DNA from: Chthoniobacterales bacterium
GTDB lineage: Bacteria; Verrucomicrobiota; Verrucomicrobiia; Chthoniobacterales; DASVRZ01
DNA: 58,584 nucleotides
Direction of reading: 5' to 3'
Assembly (NCBI GenBank): GCA_038225185.1
Contig: JBBRFA010000005.1
Location: 1 to 58,584, forward strand
Made by a program: the position numbers and the translations under genes. The first letter of the stretch is position 1, and each line of letters begins with the position of its first letter. Positions 1 through 41,661 of the stretch are shown in pieces. Under the pieces are notes generated by a model. That model saw nothing but the letters and a program-made list of their open reading frames with translations, had not been told where the DNA came from and did no database searches.

Positions 1-32
1 CTCGTTTTTTGGAGGCGCTATTGATTATTCTC

Positions 33-1118
33 ATGCGACAGAAACGACTTAAAGCCGCCCCTCACCTGGAGGTTTCTTATTATCACTGCGTCTCGCGCGT
101 GGTGGATCGGCAATTCATCTTTGGCGATGCCCAAAAAGAATACTTTGTTCGACTGATGCGGCTTTATGAAACTTTCTGCGGCCTGCGCCTCATGACCTTC
201 TGCGTGATGTCCAATCACTTCCACCTTCTGCTCGAAATACCCAAGCGACCCGATGGTTTTTTCCTCTCCGATGATGACCTTCTGGAACGTCTCAAACCCG
301 TTAACAGCCCCCTGGAAATCAACACCTTACGTGAAAAACTCGATTCCCTGCGCAAGAACAACGCTCATGCCGAGGCCGATGCGATCAAAGAGAAAATCTA
401 TGCCCGGATGTTCGATCTGAGCAACTACATGAAACTGCTTAAAGGACGCTTTACCCAGTGGTATAATCGCAGCCAGAAACGAGTGGGGACACTCTGGGAA
501 GACCGCTTTAAAAGCGTGCTGGTGGAGGCACGCGGCGAAGCTTTGACCCTGATGTCAGCCTACATCGATCTCAACCCGGTGCGTGCCGGGATGGTGGACG
601 ATCCAAAAGATTACCGCTGGAGCGGCTACGGAGAAGCCGTGGGAGGAAAAAGAGAAGCGCTCACAGGTCTCAAAACGGTGGTGGACACCTGGGAAGCAAT
701 GTTTGGAAACACTCGACTTGCCAAAACAGAAAGTGCGCAGAGCTCAGACGAACTGTCGCGGGAAGAACGGGACTGGGTTTTGTCCCGATATCGATTGCTT
801 GCCTACAATCAGGGTCAGGAGGGGGCATTGTCGGAGGAAGGGAATCCCCTCCGTCGAGGATTTACCGAGGAAGAGATTGCAGCGGTGATCGCTAATAAAG
901 GCAAACTCAGCCGCTGGGAATTGCTGCGTTGCCGGGTGCGCTATTTTAGTGATGGCCTGGTGTTTGGCGGGAAGAGTTTCGTCAACGAGGTGTTTGTGAC
1001 GGAACGAAGTCGATTTGGAGCAACCCGGAAATCGGGCGCCAAGCCCTTGCGCGGCCTTGACATCGGCGAGTTGAAAACAATGCGTGACCTGCGCCGAAAT
1101 CCCATCGGACCGCGTTGA
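33..1118 (+). CDS. REP-associated tyrosine transposase (RAYT, Y1_Tnp/HUH family), long form
   Basis: YYHCVSRVVDR, FCVMSNHFHLL (intact HUH), LWEDRFKSVLVE, AYIDLNPVRAG (catalytic Tyr), DYRWS; ATG at 33 preferred over TTG at 9. Confidence 0.9.
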   Translation: MRQKRLKAAPHLEVSYYHCVSRVVDRQFIFGDAQKEYFVRLMRLYETFCGLRLMTFCVMSNHFHLLLEIPKRPDGFFLSDDDLLERLKPVNSPLEINTLREKLDSLRKNNAHAEADAIKEKIYARMFDLSNYMKLLKGRFTQWYNRSQKRVGTLWEDRFKSVLVEARGEALTLMSAYIDLNPVRAGMVDDPKDYRWSGYGEAVGGKREALTGLKTVVDTWEAMFGNTRLAKTESAQSSDELSREERDWVLSRYRLLAYNQGQEGALSEEGNPLRRGFTEEEIAAVIANKGKLSRWELLRCRVRYFSDGLVFGGKSFVNEVFVTERSRFGATRKSGAKPLRGLDIGELKTMRDLRRNPIGPR

Positions 1119-14348: not shown

Positions 14349-14542
14349 TTTCTTTAACGACATTGTCTATTTAACACATCCCGACACGTCGTCAAACGGG
14401 TATTTTGAATTAATTTGTCACAATCAGGTTACGGAAAGGCTGAAAAAGCGTTTTCGAGGTGTTTCTCCCGTTTTTTTCTCAGCCGAGTTCCCCGGCGCAC
14501 TCTTTACCTTTCGCGCCGCTTCGCTACATTCGGCCTCCTGCC

Positions 14543-17500
14543 ATGATGACCAGCACCCAAATCCGCCAGAGTTACCTCGATTTTTTCCGTGAAAAAGAGC
14601 ATACCATCGTTCCTTCGTCGTCGCTTCTACCCGATTCGCCCAATTTGCTTTTCACGAATGCGGGGATGAACCAATTTGTGCCCATTTTCCTTGGTCAAAC
14701 CCAGTGCCCCTACACGCCTGGACGCGCCGCCGACACGCAGAAATGCATTCGGGCCGGAGGTAAACACAACGACCTCGACGACGTGGGACTCGACACTTAT
14801 CACCACACTTTTTTCGAGATGCTCGGGAACTGGTCTTTCGGCGATTATTTCAAAAAAGAAGCCATCGCATGGGCCTGGGAACTCGTCGTGGAACGCTGGG
14901 GCTTCCCCGCCAACCGCGTCTATGCCACTATCTACAATCCCGATCAAACACTCGGCGACCCGGCGGAACGCGATGAGGAAGCCTACGGGTTTTGGGCCGA
15001 AAAATTCCGTGCGGCTGGACTCGACCCCTCCATTCACATCGTTAACGGCAACAAAAAAGATAATTTCTGGATGATGGGCGAGACCGGTCCGTGCGGTCCG
15101 TGCTCCGAATTGCACATCGACCTTACCCCCGAAGGCGACACCAAAGGCAGCCTCGTGAACACGGGCGACGCCCGCTGCATGGAGATTTGGAACCTCGTAT
15201 TCATCCAATTCAACGCCAACCCCGACGGCACGTTTTCGCCGTTGCCCGCCCAGCACGTCGATACCGGCATGGGTTTCGAGCGCGTTACCAGCATTATCCA
15301 AGGCACCAAAGGGTTCACCGATTTCGCCAACGCAAAAATCTCGAATTACGACACCGATATTTTCCGTCCGATCTTCGACGAAATTGAAAAGCTCAGCGGT
15401 TGCCAATACACCAGCACCTTGCCGGGAGACGGCTCTCAACTCTCAACTCCCAACCCTCAACTGCCTATCGACATAGCATTTCGTGTCATCGCCGACCACA
15501 TCCGGACGCTCAGTTTTGCCATCGCTGACGGCATCCAACCAGGCAACAACGACCGCAACTACGTCCTCCGCCGCATCCTCCGCCGCGCTGTCCGTTATGG
15601 GCGCACCCTGGGATTTTCGGAGCCGTTTTTCTACAAACTGGTCGGCCTCCTCGCCCGCGAAATGGGCGACATCTTTCCAGAAATACGCGCCAAACAAAAA
15701 CTCGTCGAAGAAACCCTCAAGCGCGAGGAGGAGGCGTTTAATAAGACGTTGGATAAGGGGATAGCCCTCTTCGAGGCGGAAGCTGCGAAGCTGCCGGGGA
15801 GCGCACTCGACTCGCGTGCAGATTTTGGCGACTCGCCAAAATCTCCCCTCCCCATCGCCCTAGGCGCCATTTATTCCAAGCGCAACCTCCCCCATTTCGA
15901 GCGTCCGTGGGGCAAATACGCGGTCACGTTTTCCACGTTTCAACGTTGCACGCTCACCGATGCCGAGCGCGACATCGTGCTTAATTGCGTTCTCTTCCCT
16001 TTTGAAAATGGGAAATATCATCTTTACGCAGCCAGCGTTATGCCCGACCACGTTGACCTGCTTTTCGAGCCGCAGGTAAAGGAGAACGATGTTACGGGTG
16101 CTCCGATTTTTTATTTGCTGACGGAGTTGCTGCAAAGTATCAAGTCCGTTTCGGCACATGAGATAAACAAATTACGGGGGACAACAGGACCCGTCTGGGA
16201 TCAGGAGTCGTTTGATCGTTTGATCCAGTCGGATGCGGATTTGCAGGAAAAGTTTATGTATATTTGTCGGAATCCATGGGATGCCGGTGTGGTGCGAGAT
16301 ACGGAGGATTATCGCTGGCTTTGGACGGGGGAAAAAAGTGCTGCTGCGCAGGTGGAGGAGGGCGCATTGGGCGAGTCGCCCAATGCGGCACGCGAGTCGC
16401 GTGCGCTCCCCGGAGCTTTCGCCTTTCGGCTCTATGATGAGCAGGGGTTCCCGCTGGATTTGACGGAATTGATGGCTCGCGAACGCGGGCTCACGGTGGA
16501 TACGGAAGGTTTTGAAAAGCTCATGGATGAGCAACGCTCACGCGCCCGTGCGGCACAAAAGAAAACGGTGATCGAGCTTTCCGAGATCGAGACAAAAGAG
16601 CCGACGCAATTTCTCGGCTACGAAGATTCGCAGGCAGGTGCGCAGGTGGCCGAGGTGCTGAATTTAAAGGGAAAGAATGTCGTTATCCTGACCAATTCCG
16701 TCTGTTACGCCGAGATGGGTGGTCAGGTCGGCGACACAGGGGAATTGACGGGCGCGGGTGGACTTTGGCGCATTGCGAATACGCAGAAATCGGGTAATAC
16801 CTGGCTTCATTTTCTCGAAGACGCCGATGCCCCGGCAGTGGGCGATCAGGTAACGATTCAGCTCGACATTCCGCGTCGCGCGGCGATTCAAAGACATCAT
16901 TCGGTGACGCATTTGCTGCATTGGGCGTTGCACGAAGTCGTCTCGCAGGAAGCGACGCAGAAAGGCTCTTTTGTCGGGCCAGACAAGCTGACGTTTGACT
17001 TCAATTCCGCCGCGCTCACCCCGCAACAAGTGCGCGACATCGAGCGGTTGGTGAATGAGAAAATCGTCCAAAACGACCCGATTTCCTGGTCCGAGGTGCC
17101 TTATGCCGAGGTGAAGGGCCGGCCCGACATCATGCAATTCTTCGGCGACAAATACGGCGACACGGTGCGCGTCGTCGATATTGGCGGCTACTCGAAGGAG
17201 CTTTGCGCGGGCACCCATGCGCGGGCGACAGGCGAGATCGGGCTATTCCGAATCAGTAGTGAAGCCGCCGTGGCCGCAGGTGTGCGCCGCATCGAAGCGG
17301 TGGCTGGTTTGCAGGCCTACGAAACCGCTTTTTCCGATAGCGAACGCCTGAAAACGTTTGCCGCAAAACTGAACAGTCCATTGGCCGAGATCGAAAATAA
17401 ACTCGACGCTCTGCTCATCCAGCAAAAGGAACTCGACCGAGCCCTCAAAGCCGCGCAGCAACGCGAAGCCGCCAGTCGCGCCCGCGCCCTCCTCGCCAAC

Positions 17501-17839
17501 TCCGAGACGATCAATGGCACTCCCACGATCATTGCGAATCTCGGTGCCACTGACGGCGATACCCTGCAAACCGTGGCCGACGCGTTAAAATCGCTGGGCT
17601 TTACCGGAGTTGTCCTGCTCGGCGGTGCCGTTGATGCATCCGTCGCGCTAGTCGCTTCCGTCTCATCCGACTATACCGCCCGATTCCAAGCCGGTAAAAT
17701 CATCCAAACCGTGGCACCTATGATCGGTGGCAAAGGTGGCGGCCGCCCCGACAACGCCCGGGGCGGCGGCAGGGAACCCGCAAAACTCGAGGAAGCTCTC
17801 GCCCAAGCCCGCCGGTTTTTGGCGGAGATCTCATCGTGA
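14543..17839 (+). CDS. alaS: Alanine--tRNA ligase with an in-frame RAYT-like domain insertion
   Basis: LLFTNAGMNQF, HHTFFEMLGNWSFGDYFK, DTGMGFER, RVIADHIR, editing motifs HSVTHLLH and ELCAGTH, GVRRIEA, GGKGGGRP; 1098 aa, longer than a typical ~880-aa AlaRS. Confidence 0.98.
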   Translation: MMTSTQIRQSYLDFFREKEHTIVPSSSLLPDSPNLLFTNAGMNQFVPIFLGQTQCPYTPGRAADTQKCIRAGGKHNDLDDVGLDTYHHTFFEMLGNWSFGDYFKKEAIAWAWELVVERWGFPANRVYATIYNPDQTLGDPAERDEEAYGFWAEKFRAAGLDPSIHIVNGNKKDNFWMMGETGPCGPCSELHIDLTPEGDTKGSLVNTGDARCMEIWNLVFIQFNANPDGTFSPLPAQHVDTGMGFERVTSIIQGTKGFTDFANAKISNYDTDIFRPIFDEIEKLSGCQYTSTLPGDGSQLSTPNPQLPIDIAFRVIADHIRTLSFAIADGIQPGNNDRNYVLRRILRRAVRYGRTLGFSEPFFYKLVGLLAREMGDIFPEIRAKQKLVEETLKREEEAFNKTLDKGIALFEAEAAKLPGSALDSRADFGDSPKSPLPIALGAIYSKRNLPHFERPWGKYAVTFSTFQRCTLTDAERDIVLNCVLFPFENGKYHLYAASVMPDHVDLLFEPQVKENDVTGAPIFYLLTELLQSIKSVSAHEINKLRGTTGPVWDQESFDRLIQSDADLQEKFMYICRNPWDAGVVRDTEDYRWLWTGEKSAAAQVEEGALGESPNAARESRALPGAFAFRLYDEQGFPLDLTELMARERGLTVDTEGFEKLMDEQRSRARAAQKKTVIELSEIETKEPTQFLGYEDSQAGAQVAEVLNLKGKNVVILTNSVCYAEMGGQVGDTGELTGAGGLWRIANTQKSGNTWLHFLEDADAPAVGDQVTIQLDIPRRAAIQRHHSVTHLLHWALHEVVSQEATQKGSFVGPDKLTFDFNSAALTPQQVRDIERLVNEKIVQNDPISWSEVPYAEVKGRPDIMQFFGDKYGDTVRVVDIGGYSKELCAGTHARATGEIGLFRISSEAAVAAGVRRIEAVAGLQAYETAFSDSERLKTFAAKLNSPLAEIENKLDALLIQQKELDRALKAAQQREAASRARALLANSETINGTPTIIANLGATDGDTLQTVADALKSLGFTGVVLLGGAVDASVALVASVSSDYTARFQAGKIIQTVAPMIGGKGGGRPDNARGGGREPAKLEEALAQARRFLAEISS
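15433..15462 (+). repeat. Short heptamer tandem repeat (ctctcaa-type, 4 units) inside alaS
   Basis: ctctcaa ctctcaa ctcccaa ccctcaa ct, translated as SQLSTPNPQL. Confidence 0.75.
15794..16413 (+). mobile_element. REP-flanked RAYT cassette inserted in frame in alaS
   Basis: 26-bp terminal inverted repeats (15794-15819 and 16388-16413, 1 mismatch), each with an adjacent inner hairpin; interior encodes KRNLPH..YAVTF, VMPDHVDLL, IKSVSAHEIN, VWDQESFDRLI, YICRNP, YRW. Confidence 0.9.
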
Positions 17840-40404: not shown

Positions 40405-41661
40405 ATGCTGCGCAAAAAGGTCGTCCACGAAATCGTTATGAAAATGCCATCCCAGAGTAATTTAACCGCAACCCCCGACGCCGGGGAGCGCACGCGACTC
40501 GCGTGCAGTTTTTGGCGAGTCGCCAAAAACGCATTATCCATCGCGAAGCGCACTTTTTGGAGAAGCGCGACGATCGCCAGTTGCGGGAAAATTTTTAATG
40601 AATCGCCCAAACCCGCACCCAAGTCGCGGCCGCTACCCGGAGCTTTCGCGCTCGTTGCATTATTAGGGATCCCGTCAGTCCACGCCGCCGAAATCATCCG
40701 TCCCAAAGTCGTGGTCATTTCCACGTTCGAGATCGGACAAGACACCGGCGATGTCCCCGGCGAATTTCAACTCTGGGCCGAGCGCGAAAAATTTGCCAAC
40801 CCCATCACAGTGCCCGGCCTCGATCATCCCGTGCTCTCCAACGATCAGGGAGTCTTCGGCGTGGTCAGTGGCACCACCGTGCGGTCCGCCGTCCAAATCA
40901 CCTATCTCATCAACGACCCGCGCTTTGATTTTTCCAAAACTTATTTTCTCATCGCTGGCATCGCTGGCGTGGATCCCGAAAATGCCAGCGTGGGCAGCGC
41001 CGCCTGGGCGCGCTGGATCGTCGATGGCGATATCGCTTACGAAATTGATTCGCGCGAAACCAAGCCCGACTGGCCTTATGGCATCGTCCCCATCGGCGGA
41101 AAAATTCCCAATCAAATTCCGAAAGACGCCCCCTGGGCTCCCAAACCCATGGCCTGGAAACTCAATCCCGCACTCGTCAATTGGGCCTACCAACTCACCA
41201 AAGACATCGTTATTCCAGAGACCGACGATGCCAGGGCGCACCGCGCCAAATTTACCGCCTGGAAACCCGCCCAGGAACCGCCAAAAATTCTCCTCGGCGA
41301 CATTGTCGGCTCCTGCCGTTACTGGCACGGCACCGTCCTCACGAAATGGGCCAACGATTGGACAAAACTTTACACCGGCGGGGAGGGCGATTTCGTCATG
41401 TCCAACATGGAGGATCAAGGCATCGCCGCCGCCCTCGAACGAAGTTCCGCCTTGGGCAAAGTCGATTTTCAACGGGTGCTTTTCCTGCGCACCGGCAGCA
41501 ATTACTGCACTCCGCATCCCGCCCAGACCGCCATGGAAAGCATGACGGAGGAATACAGCGGCATGTTACCCTCGCTCGAATCCGCCTATCTCGCAGGCAG
41601 CAAAGTGGTCCACACCCTCATCGCCGACTGGAAAACTTACGAAACCACCACCCCTAAATAA
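40405..41661 (+). CDS. Purine nucleoside permease (NUP family), exported, with a REP-derived N-terminal extension
   Basis: PKVVVISTFEIGQDTGDVPGEFQLW, DPRFDFSKTYFLIAGIAGVDP, GSAAWA, MEDQG, LRTGSNY; start may be 40405, 40438 or 40444. Confidence 0.85.
   Translation: MLRKKVVHEIVMKMPSQSNLTATPDAGERTRLACSFWRVAKNALSIAKRTFWRSATIASCGKIFNESPKPAPKSRPLPGAFALVALLGIPSVHAAEIIRPKVVVISTFEIGQDTGDVPGEFQLWAEREKFANPITVPGLDHPVLSNDQGVFGVVSGTTVRSAVQITYLINDPRFDFSKTYFLIAGIAGVDPENASVGSAAWARWIVDGDIAYEIDSRETKPDWPYGIVPIGGKIPNQIPKDAPWAPKPMAWKLNPALVNWAYQLTKDIVIPETDDARAHRAKFTAWKPAQEPPKILLGDIVGSCRYWHGTVLTKWANDWTKLYTGGEGDFVMSNMEDQGIAAALERSSALGKVDFQRVLFLRTGSNYCTPHPAQTAMESMTEEYSGMLPSLESAYLAGSKVVHTLIADWKTYETTTPK
40481..40649. 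repeat. REPIN-like inverted pair of the alaS-type REP
   Basis: 40481-40506 is the exact reverse complement of alaS right repeat 16388-16413; 40615-40640 matches it 21/26 and is followed by the same agctttcgc. Confidence 0.9.

Follow-up and report, generated by a model that had tools for sequence, protein, structure and literature searches.

The window analysed here is a 58,584-nt stretch of DNA from the genome of a Chthoniobacterales bacterium (G000). An ORF extending from 14459 to 17839 on the forward strand encodes an alanyl-tRNA synthetase (AlaRS) of 1126 aa; translation likely starts at ATG 14543, which would yield a protein of 1098 aa. The frame is also open upstream from GTG 14459. The protein matched the alaS equivalog model TIGR00344 at 832.7 bits (cut-off 457), a full-length alanine--tRNA ligase match, and Pfam identified tRNA-synt_2c (in two stretches), tRNA_SAD and DHHA1. 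Positions 15791–16414, corresponding to codons 445–652 of alaS, constitute a stop-free in-frame insert of 205–208 codons. The original prediction had described 205 extra codons without a stop and an LPG that recurs 615 nt downstream, and both coordinates and translation agree with this description, with LPG codons at 15791–15799 and again at 16406–16414. The central domain of the insert, a predicted REP-associated tyrosine transposase (RAYT), contains neither a start nor a stop codon of its own. The features of the locus are listed in Table 1.

Table 1. Features of the alaS locus and of a related dispersed repeat in the window
Feature	Position	Strand	Remarks
alaS N-terminal part	14543..15790	+	Aminoacylation domain and most of the helical tRNA-recognition domain; tRNA-synt_2c profile positions 1-377
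Left linker	15791..15871	+	REP-coded peptide LPGSALDSRADFGDSPKSPLPIALGAI; pLDDT < 50 in full-length model; low linker dS
Left terminal inverted repeat, containing hairpin 1	15794..15819	+	Begins CCGGGGAGCGCAC...
Left hairpin 2	15820..15844	+	12-nt arms, 1-nt gap, 100% complementary; co-variation across element ends
Predicted RAYT (Y1/HUH) core domain, 153 aa	15872..16330	+	NF047646 match, alignment, model, fold match, dN/dS
HUH motif codons CAC GTT GAC (H-V-D in window)	16049..16057	+	Base 16055 = G
Catalytic tyrosine codon TAT, Y-x-x-x-N-P motif	16259..16261	+	Y130 invariant in 17/17 aligned
Right linker	16331..16414	+	REP-coded peptide, end ...GESPNAARESRALPG
Right hairpin 2	16363..16387	+	12-nt arms, 100% complementary
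Right terminal inverted repeat, containing hairpin 1	16388..16413	+	Ends ...GTGCGCTCCCCGG
alaS C-terminal part	16415..17839	+	End of tRNA-recognition domain, editing domain (tRNA_SAD), C-Ala/DHHA1
Dispersed repeat copy, REPIN-like	40480..40650	+	Left unit and degenerate right unit

Alignment with the AlaRS structure placed the insert precisely. The last 67 residues before the insert align with residues 317-383 of PDB chain 3hxu_A and the residues that follow it align with residues 390-438, such that the insert occupies the position of a 6-residue loop between residues 383 and 390. This loop is short and surface-exposed. Two relatives in the same genus carry empty alleles of the kind that the prediction had proposed to look for, reading ...EAARLLGESSKQISGAFAF in G002 and ...DVATSNIAGDFAF in G003. 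The alaS gene is single-copy, as PF01411 matched only the pieces of one gene in all five genomes searched (G000, G004, G005, G048 and G057), one of which (G057) is 100% complete in 4 contigs.

The two ends of the insert are inverted copies of one unit that consists of a terminal repeat and two hairpins. The predicted 26-bp inverted repeats with one mismatch and the adjacent hairpins with 12-bp arms were all present, and the inverted arms could be extended to 93 nt at 72% pairing. When folded as single-stranded DNA, each end formed two adjacent hairpins (z = -3.5 to -5.7), and only 0–2 of 200 shuffled sequences folded as well. Hairpin pairing was maintained across 91 element ends (87.9% of cells, compared with 67.5% when shuffled and 33-50% when slid), with 312 double-sided changes versus 84. 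The terminus GGGGAGCGC was common to both ends in 52 of 97 related elements. No common target motif was seen beside the element termini; the comparison merely lengthened the terminal repeat, with TCY preceding GGGGAGCGC at one end and RGA following GCGCTCCCC at the other.

Several lines of evidence identify the enzyme encoded between these ends. The NCBIfam model REP_Tyr_transpos (NF047646) matched the insert over profile positions 4-145 of 146 (E = 9.4e-19) at 67.7 bits, short of its equivalog cut-off of 80 bits. The RAYT motifs quoted in the original prediction were all found in the translation. The HMM scan that it had proposed returned the three AlaRS families, but Y1_Tnp (PF01797) remained below threshold for the alaS copy (E = 0.016, 15.8 bits; cut-off 23 bits). 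With the insert as the sole query, Pfam gave no match at E <= 0.01, and a PDB search with the single insert sequence gave chance-level matches only. A profile built from 17 inserts matched 4er8_A in the PDB at E = 1.5e-4, and among the host proteins of relatives 14 of the 18 scanned list PF01797 at E <= 0.001, with 10 of those 14 reaching 23 bits. The AlphaFold2 model of the core (pLDDT 90.4) had the same chain, TnpA-REP bound to a REP hairpin, as its best PDB fold match (E = 1.4e-6, TMq 0.68), with IS200/IS605 TnpA structures, including those of ISDra2 and IS608, ranking next. The full-length model was poor (pLDDT 63.5, pTM 0.33) and was used for per-region confidence alone. From the NCBIfam match, the fold and the relatives, rather than from the sub-threshold Pfam match, we conclude that the core, as modelled, is a RAYT with a Y1/HUH fold.

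The catalytic residues require separate comment. The predicted Y1/HUH reading held for the fold and for the catalytic tyrosine, which is present, but the HUH motif itself reads H-V-D in the window, whereas 16 of 17 aligned relatives have H-V-H. The difference results from base 16055, which is G in the window and C, giving a His codon, in contigs of all three public runs that cover it. In the family alignment H-x-H was kept in 146 of 150 rows, as was Y-x-x-x-N-P. Catalysis may be impaired in the assembled H-V-D allele. One relative, G006, contains a clearly degenerate copy with G-V-H on a long branch.

Relatives, mostly in Verrucomicrobiota and some in Planctomycetota, carry inserts of the same kind at fixed positions of roughly a dozen further housekeeping genes. 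The hosts are AlaRS and MetH (two sites each), ThrRS, RecG, PriA, CarB, ValRS, LeuRS, Ham1 and an HrpB-like helicase. Among 61 genomes of the order, all 18 matches at E <= 1e-25 were located inside open frames of 762-1328 aa that encode AlaRS, RecG, ThrRS or CarB. Of the best 80 loci from species genomes, 59 were internal to long ORFs, adding PriA, ValRS, LeuRS and Ham1 as hosts. The domain was detected in 886 long database proteins at E <= 1e-5, and 12 of 120 among the matches listed of these 886 contain two RAYT domains in one protein. A search of protein representatives yielded 15822 matches at E <= 0.001, of which 253 reached E <= 1e-30; a large share of the representatives are gene fragments, whose lengths are unusable for counting embedded versus stand-alone copies. 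Carrier contigs reach about 4 Mb. Up to three RAYT copies occur per relative, in separate host genes and with a distinct hairpin variant for each copy, and in some relatives MetH is split exactly at an insertion site with the RAYT as the C-terminus of the first piece. These results show that the insert belongs to a large lineage in which a RAYT resides in the reading frame of conserved housekeeping genes, at a small number of fixed positions. The search of other genomes that the original prediction had proposed thus found the domain inside other aminoacyl-tRNA synthetases and essential genes, and the proposed landing of a unit in an essential gene stands for the in-frame unit in alaS but not as a single landing, since the lineage is large and occupies fixed sites.

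As is characteristic of RAYTs, inverted REPs flank the gene, and further copies of them are scattered through the genome. The two-hairpin unit of the insert ends had about 56 REP-model matches in G000. Across five related genomes of the genus, with at most 150 candidates scored per genome and a REP model derived partly from the counted genomes' own element ends, matches numbered 56, 100, 46 and 107 in the four that carry a RAYT in frame, compared with 0 in the RAYT-free G003 (93% complete). A protein of the alaS-insert lineage is present in one copy in G000. The view that the alaS insert is the sole RAYT of this genome had to be narrowed, as family searches found further Y1 genes. These comprise an IS200-like gene on contig C41 and an ORF of ~370 aa that occurs in multiple copies at the ends of contigs, one of them at positions 3-1118 of the window; they could in principle act on repeats.

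Comparison of G000 with its nearest relative, G005, gave dN/dS values of 0.093 for the host, 0.153 for the RAYT core and 0.515 for the linkers. The linker dS was only 0.29, compared with 0.92-1.25 elsewhere, and low linker dS recurred in ThrRS and RecG pairs. Among 32 AlaRS proteins, host and core identity were correlated (r = 0.72) and had similar means (0.706 for the host and 0.695 for the core). Judged by these substitution patterns, the core has been under purifying selection about as strong as that on AlaRS itself, the REP-coded linkers are conserved at the nucleotide level, and the insert has co-diverged with AlaRS in this clade. The hairpins co-vary.

The most likely explanation for these results is that the insert is the RAYT of this genome together with its two flanking REP units, carried in frame in alaS, translated with it and servicing the REPs; we consider this explanation probable. 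We infer translation of alaS and the insert as one polypeptide because the reading frame is conserved. The gene would be read straight through into an AlaRS of ~120 kDa without splicing, and the RAYT would fold separately, held on two flexible REP-coded linkers. AlaRS would remain active, because this alaS copy is the only one. The RAYT domain would work in trans on single-stranded REP hairpins and thereby sustain the REP/REPIN population. More speculatively, residence in an essential gene could provide constant expression and protection from deletion, as for inteins but without protein splicing, and the arrangement could have originated from an in-frame REPIN into which a RAYT recombined or from transposition of the whole unit.

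A domesticated appendage, i.e. a Y1 domain that no longer acts on REPs and is retained because it helps its hosts (by binding nucleic acids or in regulation, for instance), would also be expected to co-diverge with AlaRS over long times and to be under strong purifying selection. Many hosts do handle nucleic acids (the aminoacyl-tRNA synthetases, RecG, PriA and the HrpB-like helicase), and H-V-D in the window allele would fit a loss of activity. However, MetH, CarB and Ham1 share no nucleic-acid task, the H-x-H and tyrosine residues are kept throughout nearly all of the family alignment, the flanking REP hairpins are conserved and co-vary, dispersed REPs follow the presence of the RAYT, and close relatives tolerate empty sites. 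We regard domestication as unlikely. Because the domain also occurs in MetH, CarB and Ham1, and because catalytic residues and REP ends are kept, the evidence is more in line with an enzyme that would still act on REPs than with a nucleic-acid-binding appendage specific to the host.

Removal of the insert from the RNA or the protein was also considered. No Hint or intein family was found in the host ORF, where Pfam at E <= 0.01 gave tRNA-synt_2c, tRNA_SAD and DHHA1 only, and the intein junction residues (an N-terminal Cys/Ser and a C-terminal His-Asn followed by Cys/Ser/Thr) are absent, as the insert starts with LPGSA and ends with ALPG followed by AFAF. The intein reading was therefore rejected, in accordance with the lack of intein termini that had been pointed out in advance. 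A ribozyme or self-splicing intron was rejected on the absence of Rfam matches (0 at E <= 1 for 15500-16700, both strands). Contig joints at 15841>16363 and 15845>16359 were examined as possible excision products and rejected, because the flanks of alaS do not match the loose ends of these contigs and because REPIN-like doublets in G000 share both ends. Two further contig joints, 15587/15594>16706 and 16482>16702, have short sides of 25-34 letters. No joint of the alaS flanks over an empty site was found among the Logan contigs, which cannot show absence.

A route of separation other than an intein might still be envisaged, in which a long terminal RNA stem is cut and the ends are rejoined, or in which proteolysis of the linkers frees the RAYT and the two AlaRS pieces reassemble. 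The extended pairing of the insert ends, the predicted disorder of the linkers and the splitting of MetH at an insertion site in some relatives are compatible with such a route. Nevertheless, in all 18 strong matches in relatives and in the 59 of 80 species loci the frame stays open and in register on either side of the insert, which argues against RNA excision because an excised RNA would need no frame conservation; the negative Rfam and Hint/intein results point in the same direction. To our knowledge, bacteria have no RNA rejoining route of the terminal-stem-cut type. We consider separation by either means improbable.

That the alaS copy is a dead relic decaying in a permissive loop is very unlikely: H-V-D in the window and the degenerate G006 copy could be taken as signs of decay, but the low core dN/dS against the nearest relative, the H-V-H found at the same place in the contigs of all three covering runs, and the intact REP ends are not those of a relic. 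An assembly or binning artefact that fused a transposase to alaS is hardly credible, even though the assembly is fragmented (156 contigs) with breaks that tend to fall at REPs. The same architecture occurs in hundreds of independent assemblies, including contigs of up to about 4 Mb, and Logan contigs span the left junction in all 4 runs, which come from 4 studies, while 2 of these runs also have contigs across the right junction. The junctions are thus not the assembly chimera that would have refuted the original prediction. Its central claim of a complete REP-RAYT-REP unit in frame is supported: the single alaS gene carries such a unit in a short loop on the protein surface, and intein features are lacking.

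Generalizing from translation of this RAYT with AlaRS, an HUH/Y1 element may persist over the long term as a translated, non-splicing domain in essential genes (aminoacyl-tRNA synthetases, RecG, PriA, MetH and CarB), expressed from host signals, shielded from deletion, servicing REPs and REPINs and occasionally re-invading the same loops in other lineages. We give this generalization an even chance. If it is true, an intein-like niche has been attained without protein splicing, a mode of existence not yet described for bacterial transposases. The RAYT/REPIN system has been puzzling in that a single-copy transposase is inherited vertically with unclear benefit to the host, while the repeats depend on the transposase. 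A transposase built into essential proteins across hundreds of genomes would constitute a natural experiment in how a mobile-element gene secures expression and permanence, and would add an entire enzyme to the short palindromes and inteins already regarded as selfish DNA within protein-coding genes. The defined loops of AlaRS, ThrRS, RecG, PriA, MetH and CarB that can carry large domains should be of use in protein engineering and annotation.

Among the papers listed in full-text searches of the literature, none was found to describe a RAYT or Y1 transposase in frame within a housekeeping gene. A large survey of the RAYT family excluded "unexpectedly long proteins" as gene fusions or annotation errors (PMC6006769). 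Among the closest parallels are in-frame REP-type palindromes (Rickettsia RPEs and intragenic REPs of Opitutus terrae and others), which, according to PMC3733652, are tolerated as extra peptides and often located in DNA-repair and tRNA-related genes. The inserts described in that paper are repeats alone, of 20-82 aa, whereas the alaS repeats bracket a complete 153-aa enzyme. The list of intragenic REPs in Additional file 3 of PMC3733652 might bear on priority.

The alaS insert shares with known RAYTs (E. coli TnpA-REP, 4er8; Pseudomonas RAYT-REPIN) the Y1/HUH fold and, in the family, the HUH motif and catalytic tyrosine. As in RAYT-REPIN systems, one copy of the lineage is present in the genome, inverted REP hairpins at its flanks are also dispersed, partly as REPIN-like doublets, and the gene is mostly inherited vertically under purifying selection. 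However, known RAYTs are stand-alone genes, whereas the alaS RAYT lies within the reading frame of an essential protein, and its score falls below the equivalog cut-off of the NCBIfam RAYT family. IS200/IS605 elements likewise use a Y1 transposase, with a fold like that of the ISDra2 and IS608 TnpA proteins, which recognises subterminal DNA hairpins. The ends of these elements are asymmetric and they disrupt genes, whereas the alaS insert has symmetric inverted ends, preserves the host frame and is single-copy in G000, placing it outside that family. The distribution of the insert resembles that of inteins and homing endonucleases, which also reside in frame at conserved sites of essential genes, often those of replication, repair and translation. 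Inteins, too, sometimes occur twice per host protein, with the same site occupied by different lineages and empty alleles in close relatives. In contrast to inteins, the insert has neither a Hint domain nor Cys/Ser ... His-Asn junctions, and splicing is not expected; in contrast to homing endonucleases, its enzyme is an HUH single-strand DNA transposase with DNA terminal repeats and genome-wide non-autonomous copies.

Translation of the alanyl-tRNA synthetase (AlaRS) frame confirmed the predicted in-frame, stop-free insert bounded by recurring LPG codons. Pfam matched tRNA-synt_2c in two separate stretches, as well as tRNA_SAD and DHHA1, and the gap in the catalytic-core match is the insert; the TIGR00344 score was 832.7 bits. 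The AlaRS residues flanking the insert align to PDB chain 3hxu_A, a catalytic fragment of AlaRS, at positions 317-383 and 390-438, and therefore the insert takes the place of a loop of 6 residues in the helical tRNA-recognition domain. As alaS was the sole AlaRS gene in 5/5 carriers checked, near-closed genomes included, the interrupted gene must yield a functional enzyme.

Coordinates of the alaS insert, its parts and related features of the same genome (positions refer to the window unless a contig is named)
Feature	Position	Details
alaS ORF	14459..17839 (+)	1126 aa; likely start ATG 14543, giving 1098 aa (database protein P0001)
Insert	15791-16414	codons 445-652
LPG codons	15791 and 16406	spacing 615 nt
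Inverted repeat, 26 nt	15794-15819 / 16388-16413	one mismatch
Hairpins, 12-nt arms	15820-15844 and 16363-16387	
RAYT core	15872-16330	
Degenerate doublet	40480-40650	in 5' part of ORF 40405..41661
Y1/HUH ORF	3-1118 (+)	371 aa; cut by contig start
Doublets, ~200 nt	C57:13098-13215, C62:2908-3025, C123:4277-4393	left and right units
Partial REP unit	C21:20196-20219	227 codons into a 696-aa open frame
MetH locus (L140)	C4:43900-48900	outside the window

Independently assembled contigs from four public DNA runs, representing four studies, were aligned to positions 15300-16900. The left junction was spanned in 4/4 runs (records 1, 9, 17, 28) and the right junction in 2/4 (records 7, 14); contig ends clustered inside the right REP, as expected of a repeat. 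The junctions are thus genuine, which disposes of an assembly chimera. The HUH motif is encoded in the window by CAC GTT GAC (H-V-D). However, base 16055, a G in the window, was C at full contig depth in the three covering runs (X1, X2, X8), giving the canonical H-V-H. We therefore conclude that the Asp residue is either a minor allele or an error in the consensus of this assembly. Base 15647 is C in the window and G in all four runs.

The inverted repeats and adjacent hairpins lie where the original prediction placed them, and end-to-end complementarity extends 93 nt at 72%. As every terminal repeat also forms a hairpin, each end would present two adjacent hairpins as single-stranded DNA. Predicted folding of the ends as single-stranded DNA gave z = -3.5 to -5.7, with 0-2 of 200 shuffles folding equally well. 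Across 91 element ends, 87.9% of cells paired, compared to 67.5% when shuffled and 33-50% when partners were slid; hairpin 1 was paired in 99.5% of cells, and double-sided changes numbered 312 versus 84. These data, from related rows (two per element) that are not independent evidence, argue strongly that compensatory change keeps both hairpins. Comparison of the bases adjoining the termini of related elements only lengthened the inverted repeat.

The predicted Pfam Y1_Tnp match was borderline for the window copy (E 0.016, 15.8 bits; cut-off 23), but its identity as a REP-associated tyrosine transposase (RAYT) stood on other grounds. NCBIfam REP_Tyr_transpos matched 142/146 positions (E 9.4e-19), its 67.7 bits falling short of the 80-bit equivalog cut-off. 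For the core, an AlphaFold2 model built with 16 relatives had a pLDDT of 90.4, and its top PDB fold match (E 1.4e-6, TMq 0.68) was 4er8_A, the E. coli REP-associated transposase in complex with a REP hairpin; IS200/IS605 transposases ranked next. Together with relatives whose embedded domains exceed the Pfam cut-off, these results answer the objection that a missing Y1_Tnp match would pose. In a full-length model of low confidence, the core was predicted best within its region, with pLDDT 84-93 for most of residues 461-590, and both REP-coded linkers fell below 50. This model, of unreliable geometry, fits a self-contained RAYT domain on flexible tethers. The anatomy, the RAYT fold and the sole alaS support the central proposal that a complete REP-RAYT-REP unit landed in an essential gene.

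The search for RAYTs inside other essential genes was productive. In 61 genomes of the order, 18/18 matches at E <= 1e-25 lay inside open frames of 762-1328 aa, the hosts being AlaRS (G000, the window's own genome, and G004, G005, G006, G043, G048, G057), RecG (8 genomes), ThrRS (2) and CarB (1). A search of 5.8 billion proteins yielded 886 matches of 365-2000 aa at E <= 1e-5. Among the 120 listed, which stem from assemblies of Verrucomicrobiota with names such as Chthoniobacterales, Terrimicrobiaceae and Limisphaerales, hosts were AlaRS, MetH, ThrRS and one HrpB-like helicase; 12 of the 120 carried two RAYT domains. Insertion sites were few and fixed. The 150 domains counted, two pairs of which are mutual duplicates, occupied AlaRS site B, the loop filled in the window (64), MetH site 1 (33), a second AlaRS loop, site A (17), ThrRS (14), MetH site 2 (12), RecG (8), CarB (1) and the HrpB-like helicase (1). 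With one GTDB genome per species, 259 loci encode a relative. Among the best 80, Verrucomicrobiota contributed 60 (51 internal to long ORFs, 6 C-terminal in a longer ORF, 3 short ORFs), and Planctomycetota four, all internal (ValRS twice, LeuRS, Ham1). Two loci in Actinomycetota-labelled bins and two lacking a phylum label were also internal, and 12 from Acidobacteriota, Cyanobacteriota and Thermodesulfobacteriota were all short, stand-alone-sized ORFs. PriA was the host in five further loci of the species-genome set. From these data we conclude that the insert belongs to a large, old RAYT lineage residing in frame inside essential genes.

In the six C-terminal cases (L066, L073, L078, L080, L090, L106) the host gene seems to have been split directly after the insert; the RAYT follows the MetH homocysteine-binding domain in L073, L080 and L106 and the AlaRS N-part in L078, and the RAYT of L106 is itself truncated. 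Typical verrucomicrobial RecG and AlaRS hosts occurred in bins labelled Solirubrobacterales (L061) and Bifidobacteriaceae (L072), labels that may reflect mis-binning.

Alignment with AlaRS of the same genus recovered the anticipated empty alleles, site B being empty in G002 and G003. In G001 (L054/L059) the site is occupied by an unrelated helical insert of ~150 aa that lacks any Pfam match, in G005 by a close relative of the window insert, and in G004 by a different RAYT lineage (identity 80% for host, 53% for core, 29% for linkers). RecG repeats this picture between G002 and G005 (host 87%, core 54%). It follows that these loops have been filled on more than one occasion. AlaRS sites A and B are hot spots for in-frame additions in general. 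The domain tree, built with FastTree only, sorts mainly by host site (19 label changes; minimum 7, shuffled labels 78), and its starred branches force several host-gene switches. Refilling may have proceeded by site-specific insertion, recombination into a resident in-frame REPIN (a REP doublet), or allele exchange via conserved flanks. Site A of G001 and G005 (L041) carries low-complexity Pro/Ser/Ala-rich inserts of ~85-100 aa. MetH of the window's genome is encoded by two ORFs, split at the inter-domain linker that is RAYT site 1 in relatives; the second has an in-frame ~340-aa insert between the B12-binding cap and B12-binding domain that matches Pfam Zeta_toxin, a P-loop kinase (E 1.5e-10).

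Comparison of the window's genome with its nearest relative, G005, gave dN/dS values of 0.093 for the AlaRS host (dS 1.25), 0.153 for the core (dS 0.92) and 0.515 for the linkers (dS 0.29), indicating that the core is constrained as protein and the ends as DNA. Linker dS was equally low in ThrRS and RecG pairs (0.24-0.47 versus 0.79-1.9 for hosts, where computable). H-x-H and Y-x-x-x-N-P were each kept in 146/150 domains. Host and core identities of 32 AlaRS proteins of the window's clade were correlated (r = 0.72; means 0.706 and 0.695), which fits long joint inheritance of AlaRS and core.

The insert ends matched ~20 other places in the genome by BLAST, and a covariance model built for the two-hairpin unit gave 56 matches. 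Several copies are doublets that look like the alaS element minus its core. The REPIN-like doublet inside the window lies between the sole upstream ATGs of its ORF and a signal-peptide-like stretch. After its right end comes AGCTTTCGC, the identical 9 bases that follow the alaS element, both reading ...LPGAFA, whereas AGAAAAC comes next in other copies. These bases may be flanking alaS sequence co-transferred at copying. The partial REP unit on C21 may be another in-frame insertion. A protein of the insert's lineage occurs in this genome solely within alaS; the genome also encodes an IS200-like gene. The 371-aa Y1/HUH ORF (SNHFHLL, YIDLNPV) has a long C-terminal extension, and fragments of it lie at the ends of C6, C28, C52, C104, C123 and further contigs. 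It is therefore probably present in many copies, as an element that causes breaks in the assembly.

The embedded enzyme may maintain the REP repeats of its genome. REP counts would then be expected to track RAYT presence, as was seen when at most 150 candidates per genome were scored in five related genomes of the genus: 46-107 REP-model matches in the four with an in-frame RAYT and 0 in RAYT-less G003. Full-text searches of the main texts of a subset of the literature found no paper that places a RAYT within a housekeeping gene. Palindromes of the REP or RPE type lying in frame within genes are known, including in tRNA-synthetase and repair genes and in the verrucomicrobium O. terrae (PMC3733652). 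RAYTs are described as stand-alone genes, present in single copy, inherited vertically and flanked by REPs, whereas the RAYT reported here lies in frame within alaS.
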